Source: Thermoplasmata archaeon
Lineage (GTDB): Archaea > Thermoplasmatota > Thermoplasmata > Lutacidiplasmatales > UBA184
Assembly (NCBI GenBank): GCA_021819135.1
Contig: JAKASE010000009.1
Location: forward strand, 15,408-79,407
Reading direction: 5' to 3'
DNA length: 64,000 nt
The position numbers and the translations under genes are program-made. Within the stretch, counting starts at the first letter, position 1, and every line of letters starts with the position of its first letter. The notes under the pieces are model-generated. The model saw only the letters and a list, made by a program, of their open reading frames with translations, searched no databases and had not been told where the DNA came from. Below are positions 1 through 62,443 of this stretch, piece by piece.

Positions 1-1107
<1,107 letters not shown>

Positions 1108-1111
1108 GAGG

Positions 1112-1393
1112 TCAGGGGGCGGGAGGGACGGCGTCCGGAGCGGCGGTCGCGTTCCTCAACTGCTCGAGCTCCCCGATCTGGCGGGCGTACTCGAACACTC
1201 GCTGGGCCTCCTCTTCATCGAGCCGGCTGATCGCGAACCCGACGTGCACGATGACGTAGTCGCCCACGTGGGCCTCGGGCGTCAGGGAGAGGGAGACCTC
1301 CTTGACGATCCCCCCGAACCGAACCCGGGCCATCCGCAGGTCCGGGTCGGCCGGGTCGATCTCCTCGATGCGGCCCGGGATTGCCAAGCACAT
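1112..1393 (-). CDS. hypC: hydrogenase assembly chaperone HypC
   Basis: 93 aa beginning [12 protein letters not shown], the hallmark HypC/HupF N-terminus (MC-x-x-x-P). The small size and position between hypD and hypF fit. Confidence 0.85.
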
Positions 1394-1406
1394 CGTCCGC
1401 TCCCGA

Positions 1407-3755
1407 TCACTCCCCGCGGGTCCGGGACCGGCCCAACGAGGGCTGGGTCTTAACGCGAGCGGCGGCCACCACCTGACCGAGGGAGATCCCTCCGTCGTTC
1501 GGAGGAACCCGCGAGTGCACGACGGGCGTGAAGCCCTCGGCGATGAGCCGGTCCGTCGTCATCTCCGTCAGGAGCCGGTTCTGAAAGCACCCTCCGCTCA
1601 ACGCCACCGCATGTTCACCGACCCGGCGGGCGATCTCCACGATCCCCGCCGCCAGCCCGGCATGGAAACGGCGGGCGGCCCTCCGGGCCACCTCCCGTTC
1701 CCCGAGGACTCCTCTCACGGTCGGCCCCCAGTCGAGCACGAACCCTTCCGCCTCGGGGAGCACCCGGTACGGGTACGGCTCCGCGGAGGCGGCGTCCCCC
1801 GCCGCCTTCTCCGCCTCGAACTCTACCGCCATCGCCGCCTCCCCCTCGAAATCGCTGCGATGCACCAGCCCCAGGAGGGAGGCGACGGCATCGAAGAGTC
1901 GCCCCGCGCTGCTCGTAGGGATCACCCGCAACGACCGCCGGAGCATCTGCCGTATCGTACGGGCCTCCGCCGGACGGAAGGGCGCCATCGCGGGGGCGGC
2001 ATCGTCTAGCGCCGCCTCCCCCTCGAGCTCGTACAGCAGACCCGCGGCCGCGCGCCGAGGCTCTCGGATCGCCGCATCGCCTCCGAGGAGCGGGAATGTA
2101 CGCAGGTGGGCGACGCGCTCGAACCCCTCCTGGGTGATCCGGAGGAACTCCCCTCCCCAGATCGTCCCATCCGTGCCGTAGCCGGTCCCGTCCCAGGCGA
2201 CCCCGAGGACCGGCGGAGAGACTCCGGCGTCGGCGAGACAGGAAAGGACGTGGGCGTAGTGATGCTGCACCGGATGGAGCGGCAGCCCGAGGCCGGCGGC
2301 GTACCGCGTCGAGCGGTAGTCCGGGTGCAGATCGTGCGCGACGCGCTCGGGGGCCCAATCGTAGAACCGGCGCAGGTCCTCGACCGTCCGACGGAAGGCA
2401 CCGAGCGTCTCGGCGTTGTCGAGATCGCCGAGGTGCTGGCTCACTACGACGCGATCGCCGAGCGAGACGGCGACCGTGTTCTTCAACTGGGGACCCACCG
2501 CTAAGACCGACGGAAGGTCCGGACCGAGCGCCAGCGCGAGGGGGGCATAGCCTCGGGCCCGCCGAAGTACCTGGAGCCGGCCCCGGACCACCCGGACCAC
2601 GGAATCGTCGACCGGCCGCACGATCGGTCGATCATGGACGAGGAACCCATCGGCGAGCCCCCGGAGCCGACGTCGCGCCTCACGGTTGTCGATGCAGATC
2701 GGCTCGTCCGAGAGGTTCCCGCTCGTCGCCACGAGAGGAAGGCCAAGCTCCCGGAGCAGCAGGTGGTGGAGGGGCGAATAGGGGATCATCGTCCCGATCA
2801 GGGGATTTCCCGGAGCGACCGAAGGGGCGAGCCCCGTCGTCGACCCGGCCCGCGCGTCCAAGAGCACGATCGGGCTCGCGGCGGAGCGGAGAAGTCCCTC
2901 CGACACCGCGTCGAGCTCGGCCGAGGTCCGGACGGCGTCCAGGTCGGGGAACATCACCGCGAACGGCTTGCGCCCGCGGCGCTTTCGCCGCCGGAGCTCC
3001 TCCACCGCGTCCTCGTTGCGGGCATCGACCAGCAGCTGGAACCCACCGAGTCCCTTGAACGCGAGGATCCGGCCCTCCCTCAGCGAGCGTGTGGCCTCGG
3101 CGATCGCCGGCTCGCCGAGAGCGAGCGTGCTTCCTTCAGGGGACTCGAGGGCGACCGTCGGGCCGCACGCGGCGCAGGCCGTGGGCTGCGCGTGAAAGCG
3201 ACGGTCCGACGGATCGTGGTACTCGCGGGCGCATTCCGGGCACATCCGGAACCGCTTCATCGACGTTCGGGGACGGTCGTACGGCAAGCTCTCGATGATC
3301 GAGAACCGGGGACCGCAGTTCGTGCAGTTGAGGAAGGGGTACCGATAGCGTCGGTCCTGCGGGTCCCACATCTCGGCCAGACAGTCCGCGCAGGTCGCCA
3401 CATCGGGCGGAACGATCGCGCGGCGTGGCCCGGCGCTCGGGCTCTCGAGCACCCGGAAGCCGACCTCCGACGTCGTGGGGACCGATCTCGTTTCGACGGA
3501 GTCGACGCTGGCGAGCGGCGGCGCCTCGGACCGGACCCTTCGGAGGAACTCCCCCAACGCCTCGGGCCGTCCTTCCACCTGGAGGAGGACGCCCTCGGTG
3601 TCGTTCCACACCCAGCCGGTGGCACCGAGCTCCCGCGCGAGCCGGTAGACGAACGGGCGGAACCCGACCCCCTGCACCGTCCCCCGGATCCGGACCTCGA
3701 TCCGCTCTCGGGAGCCGGACGACGGAGCCACCGGTCCCGCCGTCCTCCGACTCAT
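1407..3755 (-). CDS. hypF: carbamoyltransferase HypF (hydrogenase maturation)
   Basis: 782 aa with an N-terminal acylphosphatase-like segment (VRIRGTVQGVGFRPFVYRLA). Two Zn-finger CxxC pairs follow (CADC...CTNCGPRFS and CPEC...CAAC), then YrdC-like and Kae1/carbamoyltransferase-like C-terminal parts. Length is typical for HypF. Confidence 0.9.
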   Translation of the reverse strand: MSRRTAGPVAPSSGSRERIEVRIRGTVQGVGFRPFVYRLARELGATGWVWNDTEGVLLQVEGRPEALGEFLRRVRSEAPPLASVDSVETRSVPTTSEVGFRVLESPSAGPRRAIVPPDVATCADCLAEMWDPQDRRYRYPFLNCTNCGPRFSIIESLPYDRPRTSMKRFRMCPECAREYHDPSDRRFHAQPTACAACGPTVALESPEGSTLALGEPAIAEATRSLREGRILAFKGLGGFQLLVDARNEDAVEELRRRKRRGRKPFAVMFPDLDAVRTSAELDAVSEGLLRSAASPIVLLDARAGSTTGLAPSVAPGNPLIGTMIPYSPLHHLLLRELGLPLVATSGNLSDEPICIDNREARRRLRGLADGFLVHDRPIVRPVDDSVVRVVRGRLQVLRRARGYAPLALALGPDLPSVLAVGPQLKNTVAVSLGDRVVVSQHLGDLDNAETLGAFRRTVEDLRRFYDWAPERVAHDLHPDYRSTRYAAGLGLPLHPVQHHYAHVLSCLADAGVSPPVLGVAWDGTGYGTDGTIWGGEFLRITQEGFERVAHLRTFPLLGGDAAIREPRRAAAGLLYELEGEAALDDAAPAMAPFRPAEARTIRQMLRRSLRVIPTSSAGRLFDAVASLLGLVHRSDFEGEAAMAVEFEAEKAAGDAASAEPYPYRVLPEAEGFVLDWGPTVRGVLGEREVARRAARRFHAGLAAGIVEIARRVGEHAVALSGGCFQNRLLTEMTTDRLIAEGFTPVVHSRVPPNDGGISLGQVVAAARVKTQPSLGRSRTRGE

Positions 3756-3942
3756 CGTCGCTCACGGCGCGGGGGTCGAACCATGGGCCGGGGTCGAATT
3801 CACGGAACGCGATGAAGTGTAGGGCCGAGCCTCTCGATTGCCCCGCGCGGCCGCACGGGCGGTGTTCGACGCTCCTCGAGTTCGGCTGCCGCGAGCGTTC
3901 GGGCCGAACGCGGGGCACCGGGGGTCGAGCGGATTTCACGAA

Positions 3943-3953
3943 GGTTAGTTATC
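3943..3953 (+). promoter_or_regulatory. possible TATA-like element (TTAGTTAT) ~20 nt upstream of the GTG start of the HdrD-like gene, in the divergent hypF / hdrD-like intergenic region
   Basis: The only AT-rich patch in the 3756-3968 intergenic region of a ~70% GC sequence. Its position is compatible with a leaderless archaeal transcript. Confidence 0.2.
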
Positions 3954-3968
3954 CGCGACCTGACGTCA

Positions 3969-5234
3969 GTGCGCTCATCCTTATCGGGTGTTTCAGTGGC
4001 CCTTGGTGAGGAAATCTCCCCATTGCCCGGGCTGTTGGGCATGGACCTTGACCATGTCCTCCTCTATCCCGAGGGGAAGAGCCTCCTGACGTGCATCCAG
4101 TGCGGTGTCTGCTCCGCGACGTGCCCGCAGGAAGCGTTCATGGAGTATCCCCCGCGGAAGATCGTCGCCATGCTCAAGGCCGGTCTGATCGACGAGGTCG
4201 TCCAATCCGGCAGCATGCTGAAGTGCGTCTCCTGTTACTCCTGTCAGGCGAAGTGCCCTCGACAGATCCGTCTCACGGACCTCCTCTTCCCGCTGATCCG
4301 CGGGCGGATGTTCGAAGGCGGGGGGATACCGGCCGAGCTGCAGAAGGCGTTCCTCGACGTCCAGCGCTATGGCAACCCCCTCGGCCGGAGCACGTCCGAG
4401 CGGAGCGACTGGGTCGCCCGGTCGAAGGTGCCGATCCGCATCCTCGCCGACCGGCCGGGGCCGGTCGACCTCCTCTGGAACGTAGAGTGCTACCCCTCTT
4501 ACCATCCCCGCGGTCAAGCGGTCGCCCTGGCGACGGCACGGCTCTTCCACCGGCTCGGGCTCGACTTCGCGATCCTGGGCTCGGAGGAGCGATGCATCGG
4601 CGACTGCGCCGGCTACTTCGGCGAGTTCGGCCTGCTCGACGCGCTCATCGAGCAGAACCTGACCACGTTCCGGAAGTACGATTTCCGACGGGTCGTGACG
4701 TCCGGCGCGCACGCGTTCAATGTCTTTGCGCACCACTATCCGGGCTACGGGTTCACGACCCCGGTCGAACCCGTGGTGGGCCTGATCGGCGAGGAGCTGC
4801 CGAAGCTCCGTCCGATGCTCAAGACGTCGGTCCCGCACAAGGTGACCTATCACGATCCGTGCTGCCTCGGACGGTGCATGGGGGCTTCCGCCCTGCGCTG
4901 CTACTTCGCTCCCCCGCGAAAGCTGCTGGAGGCGATCCCGGGACTGAAGTACGTCGAGATGGCCCATCACCACGAGAACTCGCTCTGCTGTGGCGGCGGA
5001 GGCGGCGGGATGTGGCTGGACACATACTACCGGGACCAGGGGATGGACCGGCTCTCCGAGCGCGTGGTGAAGGAGGCGGTCGCCGCCGGTGCGGACGTGC
5101 TGGCGGTCACCTGCGACTACGAGGTCTCCCGTTTCGAGGACGCGGTAAAGGTCCTCGGCTACGACCGCAAGATCGTCGTGCGCGACGTCCTCGAGCTGTT
5201 GGACGAGTCCGCCGGCGGGGAAGCCGCGGTCTAG
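3969..5234 (+). CDS. HdrD-like Fe-S oxidoreductase (fused HdrC/HdrB-type: 2x[4Fe-4S] ferredoxin motifs + two CCG domains), soluble
   Basis: Two [4Fe-4S] motifs (CIQCGVCSATCP and CVSCYSCQAKCP) are followed by two CCG signatures (HDPCCLGRC and NSLCCGGGGG). No hydrophobic TM stretch is visible. The start may instead be the ATG at 4041 (MDLDHVLLY). Confidence 0.75.
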   Translation: MRSSLSGVSVALGEEISPLPGLLGMDLDHVLLYPEGKSLLTCIQCGVCSATCPQEAFMEYPPRKIVAMLKAGLIDEVVQSGSMLKCVSCYSCQAKCPRQIRLTDLLFPLIRGRMFEGGGIPAELQKAFLDVQRYGNPLGRSTSERSDWVARSKVPIRILADRPGPVDLLWNVECYPSYHPRGQAVALATARLFHRLGLDFAILGSEERCIGDCAGYFGEFGLLDALIEQNLTTFRKYDFRRVVTSGAHAFNVFAHHYPGYGFTTPVEPVVGLIGEELPKLRPMLKTSVPHKVTYHDPCCLGRCMGASALRCYFAPPRKLLEAIPGLKYVEMAHHHENSLCCGGGGGGMWLDTYYRDQGMDRLSERVVKEAVAAGADVLAVTCDYEVSRFEDAVKVLGYDRKIVVRDVLELLDESAGGEAAV

Positions 5235-5249
5235 AGGCGTCGCGGGACC

Positions 5250-6029
5250 ATGGACGTCGTCGTCCTGATGAAGATGGTCCCCGATGCCGCCCAGAAGATC
5301 GAGGTCGACGCCGCGAGCGGTCAGCTCAAGGCCTCCACGCTGAACCTCATCCCGTTCGAGTCGGACGAGCATGCGCTCGAGGAAGCGCTGCTGATCAAGG
5401 AGCGCACGGGCGCGACGGTCACCGTGGTGACCACCGATCTCCCCGGGGGGGACGTCGCGCTGTGGACCGCACTCGCCAAGGGGGCGACCCACGCCCTGCT
5501 CGTGACCCGCGGCCGTCCGTACGAGCCCCGGAGCACGGGCGAGCTCGCCCGTATCTACGCGAAGCTCCTCGAGACGATCCCGCACGACCTCGTGCTCACC
5601 GGGGCGCAGGCGCCCGACGACGTGGAGGGAGAGCTCGGGGCGTTGCTCGCCGCTCAGCTCGGTCTTCCCTACATCAGCGTCGCGGTGGCGGTCCGGCCCG
5701 ACGAGGGGACCCATTCGGCCGAAGTGACGACCGAGCTCGGGGGCGGCCTTCGGTCGGTCTACGAATCCGCGCTCCCGCTCGTCGTCGGGATTCAGACCTC
5801 GGAGACGCCGCCCCGGTACGCTCCGTTCCTGCAGATCCGCGCCGCCCAGCGGAGCAAACGGACCCGTTCCGTTGCGGTCGAGCCGGTCCCCTTCGACCCG
5901 AAGGTCGAGGTGGTCGCCCTGCATAAGCCGGTGGCCGGGAAGGGGGCGACCATGCTCGAGGGAAGCCCGGAGGAAGTGGCCGGTCGTCTCGTGGAGATCC
6001 TGGCCGAAAAGGAGCTCGTCGGAGGGTGA
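5250..6029 (+). CDS. etfB: electron transfer flavoprotein beta subunit
   Basis: 259 aa starting MDVVVLMKMVPDAAQKIEVD, with ...ESDEHALEEALLIKE..., the typical EtfB N-terminal fold signature. Followed 1 nt later by etfA. Confidence 0.85.
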   Translation: MDVVVLMKMVPDAAQKIEVDAASGQLKASTLNLIPFESDEHALEEALLIKERTGATVTVVTTDLPGGDVALWTALAKGATHALLVTRGRPYEPRSTGELARIYAKLLETIPHDLVLTGAQAPDDVEGELGALLAAQLGLPYISVAVAVRPDEGTHSAEVTTELGGGLRSVYESALPLVVGIQTSETPPRYAPFLQIRAAQRSKRTRSVAVEPVPFDPKVEVVALHKPVAGKGATMLEGSPEEVAGRLVEILAEKELVGG

Positions 6030-6030
6030 C

Positions 6031-7017
6031 GTGGCCGACGTCTATGTCCTGGCAGACCTGGAACGCGGGAGGCCCACCGATCTCACCTTTGAGCTCCTGA
6101 CCGCCGGGAGGGCGCTCGCGAGCGACCTCCACGTTCCCCTGAAGGCGGTTCTCCTCACGAACGAAGCGGGGCTGATCGCGCCCTCGCTCGGCTTCGCCGA
6201 CGGCGTCGTCGCGATGAGCCACAGTTCCCTAGAGCACCGGAACCTCGAAGCGTGGTCCCGGGCGCTCCTGAAGATCCTCGACGAGAAGCCCCCGAAGGTT
6301 CTCCTCATCGGCATCTCGAACGGTCTCTTGGGACTCCCGTCGCTCGTCGCGGGCGCCCGAGGTCTGCCGCTGATCAGCCTCTGTCGCTCGGTGACCGCTC
6401 ACGGGGAGGAGATCGTGGGTGACCCCGTCCTGTTCGGGGGGAAGATCGAGGCCGAGGTCCACGCGAAGGGGGGGCCCGTGGTCGTCGCGGTCCGACCCGG
6501 GAGCTACTCCGCCGAACCGGCCCGGGTCCAGCGGACGGTCCCGGTCGAGAACGTCGAGCCGCCGGAAGCGCTGGAGACCCGTCGGGTGCACTTCAAGAGG
6601 TACGCCGATCTCGAGCAGACCGACGTCGACATCACGCACTGCGATGTCCTGATCTCCATCGGGCGGGGGATCCAGAGCCAGGAGAACATCCGGATCGCCG
6701 AGGAGCTCTCCGGCCTGTTCCGGAACGCGGCGGTCTCCTCGTCGCGACCGCTCGTCGACCAGGGCTGGCTCCCGCGGACGCGTCAGGTCGGGCGGTCCGG
6801 TATGACCGTGAAGCCCCGGCTCTACCTCGCTCTCGGCATCAGCGGGGCGCCCGAGCACATCGAGGGCATGAAGAGCTCGGAGACGATCGTCGCCGTGAAC
6901 ACGGATCCGAAGGCGCCGGTCTTCGAGTACGCCCACTACGGGGTCGTGGCGGACATCCTGACCTTCATGCCGCGGCTCGCCGAGCAGCTGCGGAAGCGCA
7001 AGCCGGTGGTCGCATGA
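6031..7017 (+). CDS. etfA: electron transfer flavoprotein alpha subunit
   Basis: GTG start 1 nt after the etfB stop. The C-terminal FAD-binding region reads ...ISIGRGIQSQENIRIAEELS...RPRLYLALGISGAPEHIEGMKSSETIVAVNTD, characteristic of EtfA. There is no N-terminal ferredoxin domain. Confidence 0.85.
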   Translation: MADVYVLADLERGRPTDLTFELLTAGRALASDLHVPLKAVLLTNEAGLIAPSLGFADGVVAMSHSSLEHRNLEAWSRALLKILDEKPPKVLLIGISNGLLGLPSLVAGARGLPLISLCRSVTAHGEEIVGDPVLFGGKIEAEVHAKGGPVVVAVRPGSYSAEPARVQRTVPVENVEPPEALETRRVHFKRYADLEQTDVDITHCDVLISIGRGIQSQENIRIAEELSGLFRNAAVSSSRPLVDQGWLPRTRQVGRSGMTVKPRLYLALGISGAPEHIEGMKSSETIVAVNTDPKAPVFEYAHYGVVADILTFMPRLAEQLRKRKPVVA

Positions 7018-7078
7018 CGTTGCGTTCTCCCCGATCGCGCGAAGAGCCGGAGCGGGGCCGGCCCAAGAGGAACGAGGA

Positions 7079-9091
7079 ATGAAGGAAGGCGAGACGCCCA
7101 GGATCGGAGTGTACGTTTGCCACTGTGGACTGAACATCGCCGGTGTGCTCTCGGTCAAGTCCCTGGCCGAGTACGCGGGCCGCCTGCCGAACGTCGTCGT
7201 TTCGCGGGACTACAAGTACATGTGCTCGGACCCCGGGCAGGAGCTCATTCGGCAGGACATCCGGGAACACGGGCTCAATCGGGTCGTGGTCGCCGCCTGT
7301 TCTCCGTTCCTCCACGAAGAGACGTTCCGACGCGTCTGCGCGAGCGCGGGAGTGAACCCGTACTTCTACCAGATGGTGAACATTCGGGAGCACGCGGCGT
7401 GGGTGCACTCCCACGAGAAGGAGAAGGCGACCCGGAAGGCCGAGGACCTCATCCGAGCCGGGGTCGCCCGGGCCGCGAAGCTCGAGCCGGTCGTTCGCCA
7501 GCGGGTCCCGATCCATCCGGCCGTCCTCGTGGTCGGGGGCGGGATCGCCGGCATCCAGGCGGCCCTCACGCTCGCGGACGCGGGCAAGAAGGTCTACCTG
7601 GTCGAGCGCGAGCCGACGATCGGGGGGCACATGGCCCAGTTCGACAAGACCTTCCCGACGCTCGACTGCGCCGCGTGCATCCTCACGCCGAAGATGACGG
7701 CCGTGGGGAACCATCCCAACATCACGCTGTGGACCTACTCGGACGTCGTGAAGGTGGACGGGAGCGTAGGCCACTTCACGGTGACCGTGAGGCGCCGCCC
7801 CCGGTACGTCCACGAGGACCTCTGCATCGGCTGCCTCCTCTGCATCGAGAGCTGCATCTATCCGGACGCCCGCGTCGCGAGCGAGTTCGACCTCGGGCTC
7901 GGGAAGCGCAAGCCGGTCTACATCCCGTTCCCCCAGGCCGTCCCGATGAAGGTCGTCTTTGACCCCGAGACGTGCATCGCGGTGAAGACCGGTAAGTGCA
8001 CGCGGCCGTGCGTCGACGTCTGCGGCGTCGAAGGGGCGATCGACTTCGAGCAGAAGGAGGAGTTCCCGCAGATCGAGGTCGGCACGATCATCCTCGCTAC
8101 GGGGTTCAAGACGTTCGACCCCCACCGTCTTCCGTTCTACGGGTACGGCCGCTACCCGGCCGTCTACACCTCGCTCGAGGTCGAGCGGCTGCTCAACGCC
8201 TCCGGCCCGACCGGCGGGGAGGTCGTCCTTCGGAACGGCAAGAAGCCCGAGGCCGTGGGGATCGTCCACTGCATCGGCTCCCGGGACGAGAACACGAACC
8301 GCTACTGTTCCCGGGTCTGCTGCATGTATGCGATGAAGATCGCGCACCTGATCCGGGAGCGCACCGGGGCCGAGGTCTACAACTTCTACATCGACATCCG
8401 GGCCCCCGGGAAGGGCTTCGAGGAGTTCTACGACCGGGTCCAGGAGGAAGGGGTCCACTTCATCCGGGGCAAGGTCGGGGACGTCACGCCCGAGACCCCG
8501 GACGGCAAGGGACGGGTCGTCGTCTCCGCGGACGACACGCTCCTCGGGCGGGCCCGGAAGATACCGCTCGACATGCTCGTCCTCGCGGTCGGCCTGGAGG
8601 CGCAGGCGGACGCGAACGAGGTGCGACGGCTGTTCAACATCACCTGCTCGGAGGAGGGGTTCTTCGTCGAACGGCATCCGAAGCTCGCCCCGGTGAACAC
8701 GTTCACCGACGGGGTGTTCCTGGCCGGGTGCTGCCAGTCCCCGAAGGACATCCCGGACTCGGTCGCCCAGGCCGGCGCCGCCGCGGCCGAAGCGCTCGCC
8801 CTCATCGATCGGGGCGAGATGGAGCTCTCGCCGAACTTCGCGTACGTGAGCGCCGAGGAGTGCTCCGGATGCAAGACCTGCGTCCCGCTCTGCCCGTACT
8901 CGGCGATCACCCTCGAACCGGAGCACGGCAAAGCGGTGATCAACCAGGCGCTCTGCAAGGGCTGCGGGGTGTGCGTGGCGGCGTGCCCCTCGGGCTCGAT
9001 CGGCCAGCATCTGTTCGAGGACGCGCAGATCTTCGACGAGATCGAGGCCTTGATCCAGGGCGTCGCGGCGAACGGGGAGGGGGCGCGATGA
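7079..9091 (+). CDS. hdrA: heterodisulfide reductase subunit A-like flavoprotein (HdrA)
   Basis: 670 aa with an N-terminal Cys cluster (VYVCHCG...). FAD-binding fingerprint VLVVGGGIAGIQAALTLADAGKKVYLVE. Inserted 2x[4Fe-4S] ferredoxin domain (CIGCLLCIESC...CTRPCVDVC) and C-terminal ferredoxin domain (CSGCKTCVPLCP...CKGCGVCVAACP). Confidence 0.9.
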   Translation: MKEGETPRIGVYVCHCGLNIAGVLSVKSLAEYAGRLPNVVVSRDYKYMCSDPGQELIRQDIREHGLNRVVVAACSPFLHEETFRRVCASAGVNPYFYQMVNIREHAAWVHSHEKEKATRKAEDLIRAGVARAAKLEPVVRQRVPIHPAVLVVGGGIAGIQAALTLADAGKKVYLVEREPTIGGHMAQFDKTFPTLDCAACILTPKMTAVGNHPNITLWTYSDVVKVDGSVGHFTVTVRRRPRYVHEDLCIGCLLCIESCIYPDARVASEFDLGLGKRKPVYIPFPQAVPMKVVFDPETCIAVKTGKCTRPCVDVCGVEGAIDFEQKEEFPQIEVGTIILATGFKTFDPHRLPFYGYGRYPAVYTSLEVERLLNASGPTGGEVVLRNGKKPEAVGIVHCIGSRDENTNRYCSRVCCMYAMKIAHLIRERTGAEVYNFYIDIRAPGKGFEEFYDRVQEEGVHFIRGKVGDVTPETPDGKGRVVVSADDTLLGRARKIPLDMLVLAVGLEAQADANEVRRLFNITCSEEGFFVERHPKLAPVNTFTDGVFLAGCCQSPKDIPDSVAQAGAAAAEALALIDRGEMELSPNFAYVSAEECSGCKTCVPLCPYSAITLEPEHGKAVINQALCKGCGVCVAACPSGSIGQHLFEDAQIFDEIEALIQGVAANGEGAR

Positions 9092-9546
9092 CCCCCGCGA
9101 CGAACGGGCACGACCCGAAGATCGTGTCGCTCTTCTGCAACTGGTGCACGTACATCGCCGCCGATTCGGAGGGGGTTTCGCGTAAGCAGTACCCGGCGAG
9201 CACCCGCGTCGTCCGTCTCATGTGCTCGGGCCGGGTCGACCCGCAGTTCGTCCTCGATGCCTTCGCGAAGGGGGCGGACGGAGTGTTGATCGGCGGCTGC
9301 CACCCCGGCGACTGCCATTATTCCGAAGGGAACTACAAGAACCTGCGCCGGTACTCGCTGCTGAAGCGCGTGCTGACGGAGTTCGGGATCGACCCCCGGC
9401 GGCTGCGCCTCGAGTGGATCTCGGCCTCGGAGGGCGAGAAGCTCGCGAAGGTCATCCGCGAGATGACCGAGGAGCTGCGCGCGCTGGGTCCGCTCAATCT
9501 GCCCGAGAAGATCGCCCGGCCCGAGGCCGTGGCCATGGAGGCGTGA
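9088..9546 (+). CDS. mvhD: methyl-viologen-reducing hydrogenase delta subunit (MvhD/FlpD-like)
   Basis: ATG overlaps the hdrA stop (ATGA). 152 aa with MvhD-type Cys pattern (FCNWCTY...MCSGRVD...GGCHPGDCHY). Confidence 0.8.
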   Translation: MTPATNGHDPKIVSLFCNWCTYIAADSEGVSRKQYPASTRVVRLMCSGRVDPQFVLDAFAKGADGVLIGGCHPGDCHYSEGNYKNLRRYSLLKRVLTEFGIDPRRLRLEWISASEGEKLAKVIREMTEELRALGPLNLPEKIARPEAVAMEA

Positions 9547-9551
9547 GAACC

Positions 9552-10544
9552 ATGGCCGAGAAACCGAAGGTGGCGTTCTACTGGTGTGCGAGCTGTGGCG
9601 GATGCGAGGAGTCGGTCGTCGATCTCGCCGAGGACATCCTCACGGTCGTGAGCCTGGTCGACATCGCGTTCTGGCCGGTCGCGATCGACATGAAGCGCAA
9701 GGACGTCGAGGCGATGGCCGACCGCTCGCTCACGGTCTCGTTCATCAACGGATCGGTCCGGACCTCCGAACAGCGCGAGATGGTCGAGCTGCTCCGCCGG
9801 AAGTCCGCCTTCGTCATCGCCTATGGCGCCTGCTCCCAGTACGGCGGGATCCCGAGCCTCGCGAACCTCCACTCGAAGGAGGAGATCTTCGACTGGGTCT
9901 ACCACGCCTCGCCGACGGTCGTGAACCCGGCGGGGACGGTTCCCCTCGAGCGGTTCGACGACGGCCACGGCCACACGCTGAAGCTGCCGACCTTCTACGA
10001 GACAGTGCGGGCCCTCGACCAGGTCATCGACGTCGACTTCTATCTCCCGGGCTGCCCGCCCACGCCGAAGCTCCTCAAGGAGGCGGTGCTGGCCCTCCTC
10101 TCGGGGAAGCTCCCCCCGAAGGGGACGGTCCTCGCCCCGGACGTGGCGTTATGCGACGAGTGCCCGAGGCGGGCGACGAAGCCGGAGAAGCTCGCCATCG
10201 CGAGGTTCTACCGACCGCATGAGATCGTGCCGGACCCGGAGAAGTGCTTCCTCGCCCAGGGGCTCCCCTGCATGGGCATCGGGACGCGGAAGGGCTGCGA
10301 GGCGCTCTGCATCCACGGCAACATGCCCTGCACGGGGTGTTTCGGACCGACGAGCCGCACCCGGGACCACGGGGCGAAGATCCTCTCGGCCCTCGCCTCC
10401 GAGGTCGACGCCACGGACGAGAAGAAGATCGAGGAGATCCTCGCCGGCATCCCGGATCCGGTCGGGACGTTCTACCGGTACGGGATCGCCTCGTCGATGC
10501 TGCGTCGCAAGATCGTGGAAGGGAACGGAGGGGTGAGCGCATGA
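9552..10544 (+). CDS. mvhG: F420-non-reducing [NiFe] hydrogenase small subunit (MvhG)
   Basis: Starts MAEKPKVAFYWCASCGGCEES, the proximal Fe-S cluster motif of NiFe-hydrogenase small subunits. More Cys ligands follow (CPPTP, CDECPRR, CMGIGTRKGCEALCIHGNMPCTGCFGP). Confidence 0.85.
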   Translation: MAEKPKVAFYWCASCGGCEESVVDLAEDILTVVSLVDIAFWPVAIDMKRKDVEAMADRSLTVSFINGSVRTSEQREMVELLRRKSAFVIAYGACSQYGGIPSLANLHSKEEIFDWVYHASPTVVNPAGTVPLERFDDGHGHTLKLPTFYETVRALDQVIDVDFYLPGCPPTPKLLKEAVLALLSGKLPPKGTVLAPDVALCDECPRRATKPEKLAIARFYRPHEIVPDPEKCFLAQGLPCMGIGTRKGCEALCIHGNMPCTGCFGPTSRTRDHGAKILSALASEVDATDEKKIEEILAGIPDPVGTFYRYGIASSMLRRKIVEGNGGVSA

Positions 10545-12016
10545 CGACCCCCGCGCGCCAGATCACCGTCGACCCGATCACCCGGCTCGAAGGCCACGGG
10601 AAGATCGAGATCTTCCTCGACCCGAAGGGTGAGGTCGAGCGGGCCTACTTCCAGGTCCCCGAACTGCGGGGGTTCGAGGTCTTCTGCCGGGGACGGCCCG
10701 CGGAGGACCTGCCGCAGATCACCCCGCGCATCTGCGGGGTCTGTCCGACCTCGCACCACCTCGCCTCCACCAAGGCGGTCGACGACCTGTGGAAGGTCGA
10801 GCCGCCGGTGCCGGCGAAGAAGCTCCGCGAGCTGATGTACAGCCTGTTCATGTTCGAGGACCACGCCCTCCACTTCTACATCCTCGGGGGACCGGATTTC
10901 GTCGTCGGGCCGAAGGCGCCGAAGGCGGAACGGAACATCCTCGGCGTCATCCAGAAGGTCGGGGTCGAGACCGCGAAGACGGTCATCCAGGCCCGGAAGA
11001 AGGCCCGGGACCTGATGACCTACCTCGGCGGGAAGGTCATCCACCCCGTGATGGGCCTGCCCGGGGGGGTCGCGAAGGGGATCAAGCCGGAGGACCTCCC
11101 GAGGTTCCAGCAGGTCGCCGAGGAGTCGGTGGAGTTCGCGAAGTTCACCCTGCAGCTCTTCCGGGACGTCGTCCTGAAGAACGCCGGCTACGTGGATGTG
11201 ATCACATCCGGGGCGTACACGATCCCGACGTACTACATGGGCCTCGTCGACGCGAACAACCACCCGAACTTCTACGACGGCAAGCTACGGGTGGTCGATC
11301 CGTCCGGTAAGGAGTTCGCGAAGTTCGATGTGCACGACTACACCGAGCACCTGGGCGAGCACGTCGAGCCGTGGACCTACGTCCGGTTCACCTACCTCAA
11401 GAAGATCGGGTGGAGGGGGTTCACCGAAGGGAAGGACGGGTCGATCCTCGCGGTCGCGCCGCTCGGTCGGCTGAACGCCTCCGAGGGCATGGCCACCCCG
11501 CTCGCCCAAGAGGCGTTCCGGGAGTTCTACTCGACCCTCGGCGGAAGGCCCGTGCACGCGACCCTCGCGACCCACTGGGCCCGCCTCGTGGAGCTCCTCT
11601 ACGCGGCCGAGCGGATGCGCGAGCTCGTCCACGACCGGGACATCGTCTCGACGAACCTACGGAACCTCCCGACCCACACCCCAGACGTGGGGATCGGCGT
11701 CGTCGAGGCACCCCGGGGGACGCTGATCCATCACTACGAGACCGACGAGAAGGGGCTCGCGAAGAAGGTCAACCTGATCGTCGCGACGCAGAACAACGCG
11801 GCCCGGATCGCGATGTCGGTCGAGAAGGCCGCTAAGGGCCTGATCCACAAGGGCCTCGTGGACGACGGACTCCTCAACATGGTCGAGATGGCGTTCCGGG
11901 CCTACGACCCCTGCCACGCCTGCGCGACGCATGCCCTTCCGGGAACGATCCCGCTCCAGGTGACGATCCACGACTCCGAGCGGCACGTCGTGGCGGTCCT
12001 GAAGAACGCGGACTGA
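10541..12016 (+). CDS. mvhA: F420-non-reducing [NiFe] hydrogenase large subunit (MvhA)
   Basis: ATG overlaps the mvhG stop. N-terminal RICGVCPTSH (RxCGxCxxxH) and C-terminal DPCHACATH (DPCxxCxxH) are the Ni-Fe ligand motifs. 491 aa. Confidence 0.9.
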   Translation: MTTPARQITVDPITRLEGHGKIEIFLDPKGEVERAYFQVPELRGFEVFCRGRPAEDLPQITPRICGVCPTSHHLASTKAVDDLWKVEPPVPAKKLRELMYSLFMFEDHALHFYILGGPDFVVGPKAPKAERNILGVIQKVGVETAKTVIQARKKARDLMTYLGGKVIHPVMGLPGGVAKGIKPEDLPRFQQVAEESVEFAKFTLQLFRDVVLKNAGYVDVITSGAYTIPTYYMGLVDANNHPNFYDGKLRVVDPSGKEFAKFDVHDYTEHLGEHVEPWTYVRFTYLKKIGWRGFTEGKDGSILAVAPLGRLNASEGMATPLAQEAFREFYSTLGGRPVHATLATHWARLVELLYAAERMRELVHDRDIVSTNLRNLPTHTPDVGIGVVEAPRGTLIHHYETDEKGLAKKVNLIVATQNNAARIAMSVEKAAKGLIHKGLVDDGLLNMVEMAFRAYDPCHACATHALPGTIPLQVTIHDSERHVVAVLKNAD

Positions 12017-12154
12017 CGCGGGGAATCCGGGGACCGCTTCGTGACCGCACGCGCCGACCCTCCCCGTCGCGTGCGCTCGCGGCCGGCACAGTACGGCGGG
12101 AAGACGGGAGCCCGCGAGGCCCGGGACGCCCACCGCCCCGATGAGCCGGAGGGA

Positions 12155-12706
12155 ATGCCATCCAAGCGCCGCACCCCGGCCGCCTCCCGGCCCGGGCCGC
12201 GGGGCGTCGTGCTGGGGCTCGGCAACGACATCCTCACCGACGATGCGATCGGACCGCTCATCGTGCGGCGACTCAGGGACAAGTTCCGGGAACAGCCTTC
12301 CGTCGACTTCATCGAGTCGAACGAGATGGGACTCGCGCTGCTCGACTTCCTCGAGGGGTACGACTGGGCCCTGCTCGTCGACTCGATCGTGAGCGGCACC
12401 GTGCCCCCGGCCACCGTGCGGCTATTCGAACGGGCCGATTTTCCCACGACCCGCGGCTCGAACCCCCACCACGTAGGGGTCTACGACGCGCTCGCGTTCG
12501 CGGAGCGGGTCGACCTCGCGGTCCCGAAGGAGATCCGCGTGGTCGCGATCGAGGTGCGCGACCCGTTCACGTTCGGGACGGGCCTGACCCCAGAACTGGA
12601 ACGGGCCTCGGACCGCCTCGTCGCTGAGGTCGGCGAGCTCGTCCGGGAGCGATTGAACGGAGCATGCACGAATACGGAATCGCCGAAGAAGTCGCGCGGG
12701 CCATAA
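12155..12706 (+). CDS. hydrogenase maturation endopeptidase (HycI/FrhD/HoxM family)
   Basis: Contains VVLGLGNDILTDDAIGP near the N-terminus and a conserved His-containing C-terminal half. It is directly downstream of mvhA. The start is uncertain, either the ATG at 12155 or a downstream GTG. Confidence 0.7.
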   Translation: MPSKRRTPAASRPGPRGVVLGLGNDILTDDAIGPLIVRRLRDKFREQPSVDFIESNEMGLALLDFLEGYDWALLVDSIVSGTVPPATVRLFERADFPTTRGSNPHHVGVYDALAFAERVDLAVPKEIRVVAIEVRDPFTFGTGLTPELERASDRLVAEVGELVRERLNGACTNTESPKKSRGP

Positions 12707-13032
12707 TCCGGTACTCGGAAGAGCACGGCGGGGCCCACCCCCGGACGGCCTGGGTAGGCCTCGGTGCCCTGTCCGGGCTGGACCCCGAGTCGCTCGAAGA
12801 GGCCTACCCCATCGCGGCGAAGGGGACCGCGGTCGAGGACGTACGGCTGGTCGTGCGGATCGAACGGGCCGAGTGCCGGTGCCGGGGATGCGGGGCCACG
12901 CTGGCCCTGGAGGGACCCGTGGACCTACTGCTGTGCGAGCAGTGCGGATCCGCCGACTTCGAATGCCCTCCGCACGCCCGGGGCACCTGGCTGACCCGGG
13001 TCGAGCTCGAGGAGGGTCCGACCAACCGGTGA
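12664..13032 (+). CDS. hypA: hydrogenase nickel insertion protein HypA
   Basis: MHEYGIAEEV N-terminus (the HypA MHE motif) and a C-terminal Zn ribbon (CRCRGCG...CEQCGS). Overlaps the protease gene by 43 nt. Confidence 0.85.
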   Translation: MHEYGIAEEVARAIIRYSEEHGGAHPRTAWVGLGALSGLDPESLEEAYPIAAKGTAVEDVRLVVRIERAECRCRGCGATLALEGPVDLLLCEQCGSADFECPPHARGTWLTRVELEEGPTNR

Positions 13033-30423: not shown

Positions 30424-31257
30424 ATGGCATCGACAGTGGAGAGCCCTCCGACGGACTCCTCCCCTCCGCCGGTGCCGACCGAACCGAACCCGCCCGCGAC
30501 CCTGATGAGCGCGGCGAACGTCCTCGCCCGCTGCGCGACCGGGATCGAGGGACTCGACAATGTCCTGGAAGGCGGGATCCCGCGGGGCAACATGGTCCTC
30601 GTCGCCGGGAGCGTGGGCACCGGCAAGACGACCCTCTGCCTCGAGTTCCTCGTCCACGGCGCGGAACGGGGGGAGCGCTCGCTCTTCATCTCGGTCACCG
30701 AGTCGTCCTCGAAGCTCATCCAGAACCTCTCGACGTTCGAGTTCTTCCGACGGGACCTGATCGAGCAGGGCTCGCTGGTCTTCGTGGACCTGCCGGCGAT
30801 CTACGACCGCCTCGGGCTCGGTCGGGAGGAGATGACCTCGGAGGAGATCGACATCCTCATCCGGACGATCCGGGACATGGTGAAGTCCCTCGGGGTCCGG
30901 CGTCTCGTGCTCGACAGCCTCACGTCGGTATGCTACCGGATCCGGCGGGACGAGCAGATCCGCGATTTCATGCTCCGCCTCGGCCAGGAGCTCAACGAGC
31001 TCGGGTGCACCTCGCTCCTCGTCTCCGAGATCGGTCCGAACCCGGCCCGCTACTCCCTGCATGGGGTCGAGGAGGCGATCGTCGACGGGGTGATCCTCCT
31101 GTGGAACACGCGTCGGATGGGGGACATCCTCCGGGTCGTCCAGATCGTGAAGATGCGGGGGACCGCGCATTCGCGCGCGCAGTACGTCCTCGAGCTCACC
31201 CCGATCGGGATCCTGATGGCGCCCCACCTGAAGGGCGGGCGCGAGGGGGGCACCTAG
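30424..31257 (+). CDS. KaiC-like RecA-superfamily ATPase (single domain, intact motifs)
   Basis: GIEGLDNVLEGGIPRGNMVLVAGSVGTGKTTLCLEFL (Walker A), catalytic Glu region ISVTESSS, Walker B RRLVLDSLTSV. C-terminal VVQIVKMRGTAHS matches COG0467 KaiC/RadB-like proteins. Confidence 0.8.
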   Translation: MASTVESPPTDSSPPPVPTEPNPPATLMSAANVLARCATGIEGLDNVLEGGIPRGNMVLVAGSVGTGKTTLCLEFLVHGAERGERSLFISVTESSSKLIQNLSTFEFFRRDLIEQGSLVFVDLPAIYDRLGLGREEMTSEEIDILIRTIRDMVKSLGVRRLVLDSLTSVCYRIRRDEQIRDFMLRLGQELNELGCTSLLVSEIGPNPARYSLHGVEEAIVDGVILLWNTRRMGDILRVVQIVKMRGTAHSRAQYVLELTPIGILMAPHLKGGREGGT

Positions 31258-31261
31258 TCCC

Positions 31262-31843: not shown

Positions 31844-31850
31844 ACTCCTG

Positions 31851-62336: not shown

Positions 62337-62409
62337 AGCCCCGTGGTGTAGAGGCCAAGCATGCCGGCCTTTGGAGCCGGCGACAGCGGTTCGAATCCGC
62401 TCGGGGCTA
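62337..62409 (+). tRNA. tRNA-Gln (anticodon UUG)
   Basis: Hand-folded cloverleaf: acceptor AGCCCCG/CGGGGCT; D-arm GTGT-AGAGGCCAA-GCAT; anticodon stem CCGGC/GCCGG with loop CTTTGGA (U33, anticodon TTG, G37); 4-nt variable loop; T-arm AGCGG-TTCGAAT-CCGCT; discriminator A. No encoded CCA, as typical in archaea. Confidence 0.8.
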
Positions 62410-62443
62410 CAATTAAAATAATGTCGAGACGCTAGGTCTTACG

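Follow-up and report, generated by a model that had tools for sequence, protein, structure and literature searches.

A 64,000-nucleotide stretch of DNA from a high-GC Thermoplasmata archaeon (referred to below as the window) contains an operon which, as predicted from its sequence and synteny, joins an H2-splitting, bifurcating MvhADG-HdrA module to an ETF by means of a special iron-sulfur adaptor, in a wiring that is conserved. With moderate confidence, we interpret this operon as encoding a cytoplasmic, H2-dependent complex for flavin-based electron bifurcation, whose high-potential outlet would be the ETF and not a heterodisulfide. Electrons from H2 would probably be delivered to ferredoxin and, via the ETF, towards the respiratory chain rather than to a disulfide.

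Organization of the operon

The gene content observed directly comprises seven co-directional, tightly packed genes of the plus strand, as had been proposed in a first-pass annotation of this DNA; the ORFs and the families identified by Pfam and NCBIfam bear this out. Their order is HdrD-like - EtfB - EtfA - HdrA - MvhD - MvhG - MvhA, with successive intergenic distances of 15, 1, 61, -4 (ATGA), 5 and -4 (ATGA) nt. The pattern and the two ATGA overlaps had thus been described correctly, but the largest gap is 61 nt and not 62 nt. The features of the locus are as follows:

4023..5234, + strand: hdrB3/bamD-like gene (Pfam Fer4_17/Fer4_8 and CCG; alternative starts GTG 3969 and ATG 4041)
5250..6029, + strand: etfB, ETF small/beta subunit (PF01012)
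6031..7017, + strand: etfA, ETF large/alpha subunit (PF01012 and PF00766; GTG start 1 nt past the etfB stop)
7018..7078, + strand: etfA-hdrA spacer of 61 nt, the slot of an approximately 675-aa EMO gene in relatives
7079..9091, + strand: hdrA, full-length bifurcating-type flavoprotein (NCBIfam HdrA2, 862 bits)
9088..9546, + strand: mvhD, [2Fe-2S] adaptor (PF02662 FlpD, E 4e-52; ATGA overlap with hdrA)
9552..10544, + strand: mvhG, [NiFe]-hydrogenase small subunit (PF01058; NCBIfam VhuG, E 8e-64, full length)
10541..12016, + strand: mvhA, group 3c [NiFe]-hydrogenase large subunit (PF00374; NCBIfam VhuA, E 3e-120; ATGA overlap with mvhG)
12041..12706, + strand: hydrogenase maturation endopeptidase, HycI/FrhD-like (PF01750, TIGR00072; alternative start ATG 12155)
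12664..13032, + strand: hypA, nickel insertion (PF01155, found in the gene as called on the identical NCBI contig)
1407..3755, - strand: hypF (HypF domain set), divergent from the operon
1112..1393, beyond hypF, upstream of the operon: hypC (HypC on identical contigs)
..1107, beyond hypC, cut by the window edge: hypD (HypD on identical contigs)

For the first gene, a start at TTG 4023 (called by NCBI; 403 aa) or ATG 4041 is likelier than one at GTG 3969. The unit runs past mvhA into the gene of the maturation protease, which comes after mvhA in most related loci, and then into hypA. The divergent flank is formed by hypF-hypC-hypD, and HypE is also present on the identical contigs, beside HypC and HypD. 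Since three independent assemblies (an NCBI MAG and two from Logan runs) agree on the contig structure, the operon structure is not an assembly artefact.

Separate transcription of etfBA had been named as a point to check; a scan of the operon with bacterial consensus patterns, which is weak evidence in an archaeon, revealed no promoter-like or terminator-like signal above shuffled expectation. The etfA-hdrA spacer, conserved in the sister genome L008, is GC-rich and carries a GAGGA motif ahead of the hdrA ATG; read by eye, it showed no T-run or TATA-like box, and no terminator-like match of the scan lay within it. Elsewhere in the 64 kb, tblastn detected no hdrB, hdrC, EMO or second etf gene, Pfam scans of approximately 30 other ORFs of the window recovered archaeal housekeeping genes only, and no methanogenesis genes were present among the ORFs examined.

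Conservation of the cluster and the EMO gene

The EtfB of the window belongs to a distinct Hdr-associated clade, found in at least 525 species-level genomes, of which the 80 closest were sampled. Within this sample, hdrA lies downstream of etfBA in 50 of the 56 independent species-level loci that extend at least 5.5 kb beyond etfA; where at least 7.5 kb is available (51 loci), mvhD is present in 38 and mvhG in 34. The complete order HdrD-like-EtfB-EtfA-EMO-HdrA-MvhD-MvhG-MvhA occurs in 16 loci of the same sample, and at least 10 loci have a permuted order, some of them with the adaptor directly before hdrA. The coupling of etfBA to hdrA-mvhDGA has thus persisted in evolution and is no accident, in support of the first-pass annotation. 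The cluster is distributed over archaea as well as some 12 or more phyla of bacteria, its bearers including Acidobacteriota, Verrucomicrobiota, Planctomycetota, Bacteroidota, Gemmatimonadota, Acidimicrobiia, Ignavibacteriota, Zixibacteria and Eisenbacteria, and the same cluster was recovered independently when the search was started from the EMO side.

The usual eighth gene encodes a membrane ETF:menaquinone oxidoreductase (EMO/EtfD type) of approximately 675 aa, which matches EtfD in both its TM and soluble parts (E 7e-63). Every one of the 56 loci that reach at least 5.5 kb past etfA has an EMO-like gene adjoining it, and this gene has been lost from the operon in the window and its sister lineage. 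That this membrane protein, absent from the window, normally belongs to the cluster had been overlooked in the first-pass annotation. Canonical hdrCB is additionally present in about one quarter of the related loci, and a second hdrA in some; in such genomes, the ETF branch may be accompanied by a classical disulfide branch, which might even be the main outlet.

Proposed path of electrons

The HdrA of the window aligns with that of M. thermolithotrophicus (5ODC_A) over residues 5-661 (E 2e-222), keeps the full architecture with inserted and C-terminal ferredoxin domains, and conserves the lysine of CCMYAMK (the N5 lysine) and the DCxxC pair. MvhD matches NCBIfam VhuD and the C-terminal region of HdrA2. 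The MvhA translation carries ICGVCPTSH and AYDPCHACATH, in agreement with the L1/L2 motifs that PMC6085437 gives for group 3c.

According to the subunit contacts and direction of flow that we predict, H2 would be oxidised at MvhA, and electrons would pass through MvhG and the [2Fe-2S] cluster of MvhD to the FAD of HdrA, where bifurcation would occur. The low-potential electron would exit via the ferredoxin domains of HdrA to ferredoxin, the putative co-acceptor, and the high-potential electron would cross the adaptor, by way of its two cubane clusters and its single noncubane-type cluster, and reach the ET-FAD of the dedicated EtfAB. The membrane EMO, co-encoded in most lineages, would there re-oxidise the reduced ETF and pass the electrons to menaquinone, giving the net reaction 2 H2 + Fd(ox) + MK -> Fd(red) + MKH2. 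This quinone end of the chain is drawn from the other lineages. Because EMO is absent from both the operon and the 64 kb, the archaeon of the window would need another ETF partner, and the candidates for its final acceptor are an ETF oxidase encoded elsewhere or an ETF-linked dehydrogenase/reductase.

The complex might also run in the reverse direction, as a confurcating, H2-evolving system in which HdrA-FAD receives electrons from the ETF and reduced ferredoxin together, and H2 leaves at MvhADG; the ETF would then be reduced by acyl-CoA or amino-acid-derived dehydrogenases or, in other lineages, by quinol via EMO. Flavin-based bifurcation is reversible in principle, and class II benzoyl-CoA reductase (BCRII) combines confurcation with bifurcation. 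The lack of EMO in the window fits an ETF which donates electrons received from soluble dehydrogenases, and related non-methanogenic Thermoplasmata have been interpreted as peptide/fatty-acid fermenters with bcd/etf genes. However, neither the operon nor the scanned ORFs of the window encode an acyl-CoA dehydrogenase or other ETF-reducing enzyme, nor do related loci regularly, and the location of the ETF beside EMO in most lineages, and beside cytochrome c maturation genes in one locus (L091), suggests respiration. To our knowledge, the group 3c Mvh enzymes characterised to date operate in H2 uptake. We regard the reverse direction as unlikely.

The iron-sulfur adaptor

The HdrD-like protein is, judged from its sequence, of the sHdrB3/BamD type (the likeness to BamD being by description), i.e. 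a soluble HdrC-HdrB fusion with an HdrC-like 2x[4Fe-4S] domain, a CCG (noncubane-cluster) domain and no predicted TM segment. Its closest match in the PDB is EtfD of M. smegmatis (9OJN, E 3e-34), its N-terminal part matches HdrC (E 7e-17), and the same search returned no HdrB chain at E<=0.01. With sHdrB3 of a type II sHdr cluster it shares 42% identity across the full length (E 2e-105; a canonical HdrB reaches E 0.004 only), and with the soluble part of EMO from related clusters 33%. These matches suggest that the CCG part is of the ETF-interacting kind and, since the N-terminus is HdrC-like, the adaptor could plausibly dock on HdrA, in keeping with its place next to an HdrA-MvhD fusion in the relative L088.

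It had been proposed that this protein provides a CCG-domain terminal site, with a disulfide among the possible acceptors. A classical heterodisulfide-type reductase of this sort would reduce some disulfide or sulfur compound, like HdrBC/HdrD, with EtfAB as a second input or accessory. The domain architecture is that of HdrC plus HdrB/HdrD, the top NCBIfam match is the C-terminal part of TfrB, and a homologous module is found in sHdr sulfur-oxidation clusters. In one relative (L088), the adaptor directly adjoins an HdrA-MvhD fusion with no ETF, so an ETF-independent acceptor may exist. However, HdrB has two noncubane clusters, one per thiol, whereas only one of the two CCG motifs of the adaptor is complete: the second has invariant C280, C322, C323 and C364 together with E/D367, its CxxC reading C-P-Y-E in 74 of 76 sequences, and the first is degenerate. 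The eight cubane cysteines are approximately 100% conserved. Moreover, the ETF adjoins the adaptor, or EMO alone intervenes, in nearly all loci. The adaptor thus more probably passes electrons on to the ETF than reduces a disulfide itself, and we consider the classical reaction quite improbable.

The ETF

The ETF of the window is most likely a plain one-flavin carrier. All NCBIfam matches of EtfB fall far under their cut-offs, and the protein is about equidistant from the non-bifurcating 1EFP_B and the bifurcating 5OL2_B/4KPU_B; its PRY recognition-loop region resembles that of the non-bifurcating Paracoccus ETF, and its identity to EtfB of the type II sHdr cluster is 39%. The ET-FAD domain of EtfA is strongly conserved in comparison with 4KPU_A and 1O94_D.

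The first-pass annotation envisaged a single supercomplex in which both HdrA-FAD and Etf are flavin branch points and the CCG domain is the terminal site. Both flavoprotein families have bifurcating members, BCRII is a real case of two coupled bifurcation/confurcation modules, and EtfB has kept a partial SPxxV motif ('GSPEEV'). Nevertheless, a comparison with bifurcating ETFs revealed that the group 2 determinants are missing. Bifurcation by T. maritima EtfABCX strictly requires the Arg of RPxFGG (PMC10734219), a residue that occurs in none of the 78 family members: its EtfA site holds Pro/Asp in the window and S/C/A/N in 78 of 78 relatives. EtfB lacks the small-subunit RxGV motif, EtfA has no N-terminal ferredoxin domain, and there is no NAD(H)-binding partner or ETF-linked dehydrogenase. 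A second flavin branch point thus appears highly improbable.

A mere neighbourhood of two units with separate functions, etfBA plus its Fe-S partner and hdrA-mvhDGA, is scarcely credible: the 61-nt gap could hold an archaeal promoter missed by the bacterial-pattern scan, and the HdrB3-EtfAB-EMO module is found without hydrogenase in type II sHdr clusters, but the linkage is kept across two domains of life, many phyla and permuted orders (adaptor directly before hdrA), and the closest loci lack canonical hdrBC, which would leave HdrA without a high-potential partner.

Comparison with known systems

Class II benzoyl-CoA reductase is the only case with experimental support for the route from an HdrA-type flavoprotein through an HdrBC-fusion and ETF to EMO. 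There, the high-potential electron of the HdrA-like BamE passes via BamD to the alpha-FAD of the ETF, as shown by density in cryo-ET and by reduction of the ETF in vitro, and EMO then re-oxidises the ETF (preprint, bioRxiv 10.64898/2026.04.10.717634). The window system is likened by description to this BamE-BamD-ETF-EMO chain, which leads to menaquinone and in which the fusion has a disrupted second noncubane cluster. The input of the reductase is ferredoxin plus NADH via BamGHI, whereas H2 would enter the window complex via MvhAGD; low-potential electrons end up on benzoyl-CoA at a tungsten site in the former and presumably on ferredoxin in the latter. In Geobacter, the bam operon is not described as including the ETF genes, whereas those of the window lie inside the operon.

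The same gene adjacency, with the identities given above for the adaptor and EtfB, is known from the type II sHdr sulfur-oxidation clusters (shdrC1B1AHB3-etfAB-emo), and their sHdrB3-EtfAB-EMO module has been proposed to carry electrons from an HdrA-type flavoprotein to menaquinone, according to PMC11094781, which cites Kumpel et al. 2024. The window differs in having a long bifurcating-type HdrA and the MvhDGA hydrogenase, and in lacking emo as well as the short sHdrA, sHdrC1B1, sHdrH, LbpA and lipoate-assembly genes of the type II cluster (L041); the electron source would accordingly be H2 instead of sulfane sulfur.

With MvhAGD-HdrABC of methanogens (PDB 5ODC/5ODH), the operon shares MvhA, MvhG, MvhD and a full-length HdrA with its lysine and CxxC, and the same H2 input and HdrA-FAD branch point are expected. 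The methanogen complex has separate HdrB and HdrC, while the window has one HdrC-HdrB-like fusion with one complete CCG motif, and an inserted EtfAB pair. EMO/EtfD (PDB 9OJN; S. aciditrophicus EMO preprint), the best solved-structure match of the adaptor, takes electrons from ETF, whereas the adaptor would give electrons to it; having no membrane or heme domain, the adaptor is not an EMO. FixABCX/EtfABCX follows the same logic overall: ferredoxin and the quinone pool share the electrons of a mid-potential donor, with the aid of ETF and a membrane-associated ETF oxidase. In FixABCX, however, the ETF itself bifurcates (group 2, RPxFGG Arg) and the donor is NADH, whereas in the window the ETF lacks bifurcation determinants, the branch point would be HdrA and the donor H2.

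As the first-pass annotation had surmised, the searchable literature holds no characterised example of an MvhADG-HdrA-ETF operon. The synteny had nevertheless been remarked once: group 3c hydrogenase, Hdr and ETF genes were noted together in some Chloroflexi (Anaerolineae/Dehalococcoidia; bioRxiv 10.1101/2021.08.23.457424), in a genomic remark on one phylum that is accompanied, in the main text, by no mechanism, motif analysis or experiment. This report, together with the earlier ones on HdrB3-EtfAB-EMO and BamD-ETF-EMO, had been overlooked when the DNA was first annotated.

Organisation of the operon

At about 70% G+C, the window gives overcrowded lists when ORFs are called mechanically. Third-position GC, together with searches for protein domains, nevertheless set apart a clear run of genes on the plus strand:

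4023..5234, +, Fe-S/CCG protein ("HdrD-like") with two 4Fe-4S motifs and CCG (NCBI start; alternatives GTG 3969 and ATG 4041)
5250..6029, +, etfB (PF01012)
6031..7017, +, etfA (PF01012 and PF00766)
7079..9091, +, hdrA (HdrA2 model; 5ODC_A)
9088..9546, +, mvhD (PF02662)
9552..10544, +, mvhG (PF01058; VhuG)
10541..12016, +, mvhA (NiFe large subunit)

The successive spacings, from the first gene to mvhA, are 15, 1, 61, -4, 5 and -4 nt. The gene series, its spacings and its reading as a single unit thus stand as the first-pass annotation described them, and only the first start codon is changed (4023, the NCBI start, in place of 3969). An internal promoter or terminator had been named there as a sign against a single unit; a scan of 3700-13300 for sigma-70 promoters and intrinsic terminators found no signal above shuffled expectation, which is weak evidence, since these patterns are bacterial and the organism is archaeal. 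The 61-nt etfA-hdrA spacer is GC-rich and is kept in the sister genome L008. An assembly artefact was rejected, as the same contig was obtained in three independent assemblies.

Downstream of mvhA the operon continues into genes for a hydrogenase maturation protease and then HypA, and its divergent flank carries hypF-hypC-hypD(-hypE). The operon lies inside a complete [NiFe] maturation island (1..3755 on the minus strand, 12041..13032 on the plus strand), a setting that suggests a role as a principal hydrogenase for its Mvh enzyme. The individual maturation genes were located as follows:

up to the window edge, which cuts it, -, hypD
1112..1393, -, hypC
1407..3755, -, hypF
further upstream, seen on a longer Logan contig, hypE
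within 12041..13032, +, endopeptidase and hypA

In the rest of the window, where scanned, archaeal housekeeping genes were found (eIF-2 alpha, fibrillarin, L1, L10P, KaiC-like ATPases, ArgRS, pyruvate kinase), and the closest GTDB genome is a Thermoplasmata MAG with 90% EtfB identity. By tblastn, the 64 kb contain no hdrB, hdrC, second etf or gene for EMO (the membrane ETF:menaquinone oxidoreductase, EtfD). The earlier statement that mcr, fpo and HdrE are missing was borne out: no methanogenesis or Fpo-type genes occur among the window ORFs scanned, and no hdrE was found.

The hydrogenase and HdrA

The large-subunit motifs of group 3c hydrogenases have been defined as L1 ICGxCxxxH and L2 AYDPCxxCATH (PMC6085437). 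Both are present in the MvhA translation (ICGVCPTSH and AYDPCHACATH), which matches NCBIfam VhuA with E 3e-120. MvhG (PF01058/VhuG) and the [2Fe-2S] adaptor MvhD (PF02662/VhuD) are encoded adjacently, by genes that overlap or lie 5 nt apart. With these motifs and neighbours, the enzyme is a group 3c [NiFe]-hydrogenase, MvhADG.

HdrA can be aligned over its whole length with the M. thermolithotrophicus HdrA of known structure (5ODC_A, residues 2-652, E 2e-222). It is of the long, 670-aa methanogen type, as opposed to the sHdrA of about 350 aa found in the related locus L041, and retains everything expected of a full-length bifurcating-type HdrA: the FAD domain, the lysine of CCMYAMK, the DCxxC pair (DCAAC), and both the inserted and the C-terminal ferredoxin domains. 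In HdrA, K409 reportedly contacts N5 of the flavin. The N5 lysine has been cited as a hallmark of Hdr-type bifurcating flavins, and an analogous lysine has been described for BamE, the HdrA-like flavoprotein of class II benzoyl-CoA reductase (bioRxiv 10.64898/2026.04.10.717634).

The "HdrD-like" protein

The N-terminal half of the "HdrD-like" protein aligns with HdrC (E about 1e-17), while its C-terminal two-thirds match EtfD best, in the soluble portion of that protein (E 3e-34). In the PDB search no match to a HdrB chain was as good as E 0.01, and the canonical HdrB of a related locus gave E 0.004 by BLASTP. In a set of 76 orthologues there is essentially no variation at the eight cubane cysteines. 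Of the two CCG motifs, the second is complete and has a characteristic form (H-D-x-C, CC-GGGGGG, C-P-Y-E), with four invariant cysteines and E/D at the end of C-P-Y-E in 74 of 76; the first has at most three cysteines, in 67-70% of the family only, and is never CxxC. HdrB, by comparison, is separate from HdrC and has two complete CCG motifs with ten cysteines and two noncubane clusters, which make up the disulfide site. The cysteine pattern of the fused protein is instead that predicted for an HdrC2-HdrB2 fusion with one noncubane cluster, as found in the type II sHdr module. It would accordingly hold two cubanes and one noncubane-type cluster, and in about 70% of the family perhaps a second site built on 3 Cys.

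The protein is 42% identical over its full length to the sHdrB3 of L041 (E 2e-105), and the EtfB proteins of the window and of the L041 sHdr cluster share 39% identity. On the basis of these matches, the "HdrD-like" gene is, as judged by sequence, an sHdrB3-type adaptor. A membrane enzyme of the HdrD/HdrE type was rejected, since the adaptor has no transmembrane segment and there is no hdrE. It likewise lacks the N-terminal NarI-like heme b membrane domain that EMO/EtfD proteins carry fused to their Fe-S/CCG part: no hydrophobic segment was detected, against about five in the approximately 675-aa protein encoded at related loci.

In the window and its sister genome L008, the adaptor contains a 6-residue insertion (4875..4901, residues ~285-293 of 403 aa) that brings two extra cysteines, C285 and C293: LGRCMGASALRCY. 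Most relatives show LGRHN at this site, with His in 44 of 76. As a His helps to ligate the proximal noncubane cluster in BamD, the HdrBC fusion of class II benzoyl-CoA reductase, the insertion may represent a ligand swap specific to the EMO-less lineage.

The ETF

EtfA carries the ET-FAD (alpha-FAD) domain II (PF00766, E 7e-28), so that the heterodimer has what is expected of ETFs in general, and its SRPLVD...GISGAPEH...AVNTDP region is strongly conserved with 4KPU_A and 1O94_D. The first-pass annotation suggested the ETF as a second flavin branch point; the alignments speak against this. In bifurcating (group 2) ETFs, for which we used the motifs as restated in PMC10734219, the Arg of RPxFGG in the large subunit lies 3.1 A from N5 of the bifurcating FAD, and its mutation in T. 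maritima EtfABCX abolishes ferredoxin reduction (PMC10734219). This Arg is absent from the window EtfA (GDPVLFGGK), and the aligned column holds S, C, A or N in 78 of 78 EtfA relatives; an Arg does occupy it in both reference ETFs, one bifurcating and one non-bifurcating. In the small subunit, RxGV is absent from the window EtfB and from the family consensus, the RDGV of 5OL2_B/4KPU_B being aligned to A-S-T-L in the window protein, and of GxxSPTxV a partial GSPEEV is left. A PRY-containing stretch in EtfB resembles the recognition-loop region of the non-bifurcating Paracoccus ETF, and EtfA has no N-terminal ferredoxin domain. The simplest reading is that EtfAB would be a one-FAD carrier ETF. 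A bifurcating ETF linked to a lactate or acyl-CoA dehydrogenase was rejected, because the bifurcation motifs are missing and the genes near the operon include none for an NAD(H)-dependent or ETF-linked dehydrogenase.

Conservation of the cluster

With aligned EtfB relatives as the query, each GTDB species was scanned through a single genome, and at least 525 loci were found to encode a relative. The best 80 of these were fetched with 10-kb flanks and mapped by tblastn with the window proteins and three proteins from an acidobacterial locus. The link between etfBA and hdrA-mvh would have been undermined by homologous loci lacking it; the outcome was the opposite. Among these best 80 of at least 525 loci, hdrA is present in 50 of the 56 with at least 5.5 kb downstream of etfA, and mvhD and mvhG in 38 and 34, respectively, of the 51 with at least 7.5 kb. 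The commonest order in the same set (16 loci) is HdrD-like-EtfB-EtfA-[~675-aa protein]-HdrA-MvhD-MvhG-MvhA, and at least 10 loci show the permuted order EtfB-EtfA-[675]-HdrD-like-HdrA-MvhDGA. The carriers include Acidobacteriota, Verrucomicrobiota, Planctomycetota, Bacteroidota, Ignavibacteriota, Gemmatimonadota, Acidimicrobiia, Zixibacteria, Eisenbacteria, a Chromatiales MAG and archaea. A search started from the 675-aa protein yielded one more complete cluster, accompanied by hycI and hypA.

The ~675-aa protein begins with about five hydrophobic helices, and both its membrane and its soluble parts match M. smegmatis EtfD (9OJN, E 7e-63); by this homology, it belongs to the EMO/EtfD family of ETF:(methyl)menaquinone oxidoreductases. 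All 56 related loci with sufficient flanking sequence (among the best 80 of at least 525) carry its gene, and the direct step from etfA to hdrA was seen in this set only in the window lineage (the window and L008) and in one bacterial MAG, L021. Since the window groups with an EMO-bearing archaeal locus in the EtfB+EtfA tree, the absence of EMO looks like a secondary loss from the operon. A database search gave no close NCBI-source match to the archaeal EMO; the one NCBI candidate checked was a different assembly with the full cluster.

Several individual loci deserve mention. In five acidobacterial loci (L007, L013, L019, L063 and L066) there are two hdrA copies with a canonical hdrC-hdrB between them, in the order HdrD-like-EtfBA-EMO-HdrA-HdrC-HdrB-HdrA-MvhDG (e.g. 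L007:11516-17083); these might specify a mixed complex that has an outlet to a disulfide in addition to the one to the ETF. The EMO-like proteins of L007 (9474-11501), L004 and L016 have a first CCG motif without cysteine (VGD...NSGND...TDPH, three aligned), in contrast to the VGC...TCTGD...CPHC of M. smegmatis EtfD, and probably carry a single noncubane-type cluster. In L020:9236-12586 (Fraserbacteria) and L047:7811-11176 (Bipolaricaulia) the HdrA match is split in two parts on the same strand, about 1.4 kb apart, which could reflect an insertion, an intein, or a recoded or interrupted gene. In L009, from a MAG that bears the label "Candidatus Methanofastidiosia", the full HdrD-like-EtfBA-EMO-HdrA-MvhDG cluster is present; the ETF of this locus groups with bacterial (Anaerolineae-like) sequences in the tree, which suggests lateral transfer or a binning error.

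Comparison with known systems and proposed electron path

A long HdrA is missing from six loci among the best 80 of at least 525. Annotation of L041, one of these six, showed LbpA (GcvH-like), HdrC, HdrB, a HdrA of 352 aa, the fusion protein, two proteins of the radical-SAM type, a lipoate ligase, EtfB, EtfA and EMO; this gene set is the published type II sHdr cluster, shdrC1B1AHB3-etfAB-emo, and the other five show the same tblastn pattern. With this module the window shares the adjacency of etfAB to the fusion gene (15-nt and 1-nt gaps), whereas it lacks emo and, from the complete system, the shdrC1B1AH core, LbpA and the lipoate-assembly genes.

A further comparison is with class II benzoyl-CoA reductase, as described in a 2026 preprint (bioRxiv 10.64898/2026.04.10.717634). 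There, the HdrA-like BamE bifurcates, and its high-potential electron passes through BamD to the alpha-FAD of a docked ETF, as was shown with in situ cryo-ET and with ETF reduction in vitro, before EMO re-oxidises the ETF. The proximal noncubane cluster of BamD is conserved, the distal one is disrupted in most homologues, and the disulfide site of BamD is blocked. Set against this published description, the cysteine pattern and gene neighbourhood of the window adaptor are consistent with a BamD-like role. In the window, MvhAGD takes the place of BamGHI/F, HdrA that of BamE and the sHdrB3-type adaptor that of BamD, and a dedicated EtfAB is encoded within the operon.

Because the window thus encodes a chain of the same component types as BamE-BamD-ETF with a different input, electrons from H2 would pass through MvhA/G/D to the FAD of HdrA, from which a low-potential branch would lead to ferredoxin and a high-potential branch through the adaptor to the ETF; in most lineages the ETF would deliver them to EMO and menaquinone. 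The components, their motifs and homologies and the conserved synteny of the unit were observed directly. From these we infer the subunit contacts, the direction of flow, ferredoxin as the partner, and the final acceptor of the ETF in the EMO-less archaeon.

Other outlets for the adaptor and HdrA, disulfide-linked or independent of the ETF, may exist, in view of the relatives: hdrCB occurs in about a quarter of the related loci and a second hdrA in some (among the best 80 of at least 525), and in locus L088 (10001-13875) a 63%-identical adaptor lies directly upstream of a 789-aa HdrA-MvhD fusion, with no ETF. The neighbours of this pair are genes for CooT, a CooC-like ATPase and CODH/ACS (CdhA/C/D-like), with a second CCG protein, FlpD-domain proteins and HdrA-like genes on the other strand; ETF-independent use of the adaptor in a Wood-Ljungdahl archaeon is therefore possible. 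The same hardware could also be run backwards, as a confurcating H2 producer.

Returning to the ETF outlet, we propose tentatively, and with somewhat less than even confidence, that MvhADG-HdrA-HdrB3-EtfAB(-EMO) is a widespread and so far uncharacterised class of electron-bifurcating hydrogenase, whose high-potential acceptor would be the ETF/quinone pool and not a heterodisulfide (2 H2 + Fd(ox) + MK -> Fd(red) + MKH2). It would be a hydrogen-driven counterpart of FixABCX. The window would then hold a reduced archaeal version, with the ETF uncoupled from EMO; this EMO-less form lends itself, as a natural variant, to the question of the other partners that the ETF can serve.

Among non-methanogenic bacteria and archaea, group 3c (Mvh-type) hydrogenases are widespread, and they are routinely annotated as "heterodisulfide-reductase linked". 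To our knowledge, no disulfide substrate is known in most of these carriers. The replacement of HdrBC by an ETF-facing adaptor, a dedicated ETF and, usually, EMO offers a testable answer for organisms without CoM-S-S-CoB, namely quinone reduction as the exergonic half. If correct, it would explain the role of group 3c hydrogenases in non-methanogenic archaea, and in many bacteria of soils and sediments (Acidobacteriota, Verrucomicrobiota, Planctomycetota, Gemmatimonadota, Bacteroidota and others), where neither CoM nor CoB is made; in abundant phyla of these habitats, H2 would then give respiratory electrons and reduced ferredoxin together. The outlet from HdrA through BamD/HdrB3 and ETF to EMO would, moreover, be a reusable module serving aromatic-ring reduction, sulfur oxidation and hydrogen metabolism.

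Both the individual parts and the HdrB3-EtfAB-EMO module were known before, and the route from HdrA through a fusion subunit to ETF has one experimental precedent. Full-text searches of the literature gave no characterisation of the hydrogenase-linked version, no recognition of its breadth and no account of the EMO-less archaeal form. The first-pass view of the synteny as uncharacterised therefore holds, with the qualification that a 2021 preprint mentions it for some Chloroflexi (Anaerolineae/Dehalococcoidia), without analysis in its main text (bioRxiv 10.1101/2021.08.23.457424).

Other features of the window

A whole-window Rfam scan revealed no leader RNAs; the only Rfam/ARAGORN match in the 64 kb is a tRNA-Gln (TTG), whose position coincides with a fall in G+C at the window's right end. 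Four further features were recorded, among which the cyclase-TPR gene, directly downstream of the hydrogenase island, has a domain pairing that seems unusual for an archaeon:

62337..62410, +, tRNA-Gln (TTG)
43009..45018, -, GMC-family FAD oxidoreductase, 669 aa, with ~200 N-terminal residues without Pfam match
13281..15248, -, 655-aa protein, adenylate/guanylate cyclase catalytic domain at the N-terminus, then TPR repeats
28015..30396, 793-aa HerA/AAA-like gene, preceding the KaiC-like trio
30424..32633, +, three KaiC-like ATPase genes in a row (277, 193 and 260 aa)
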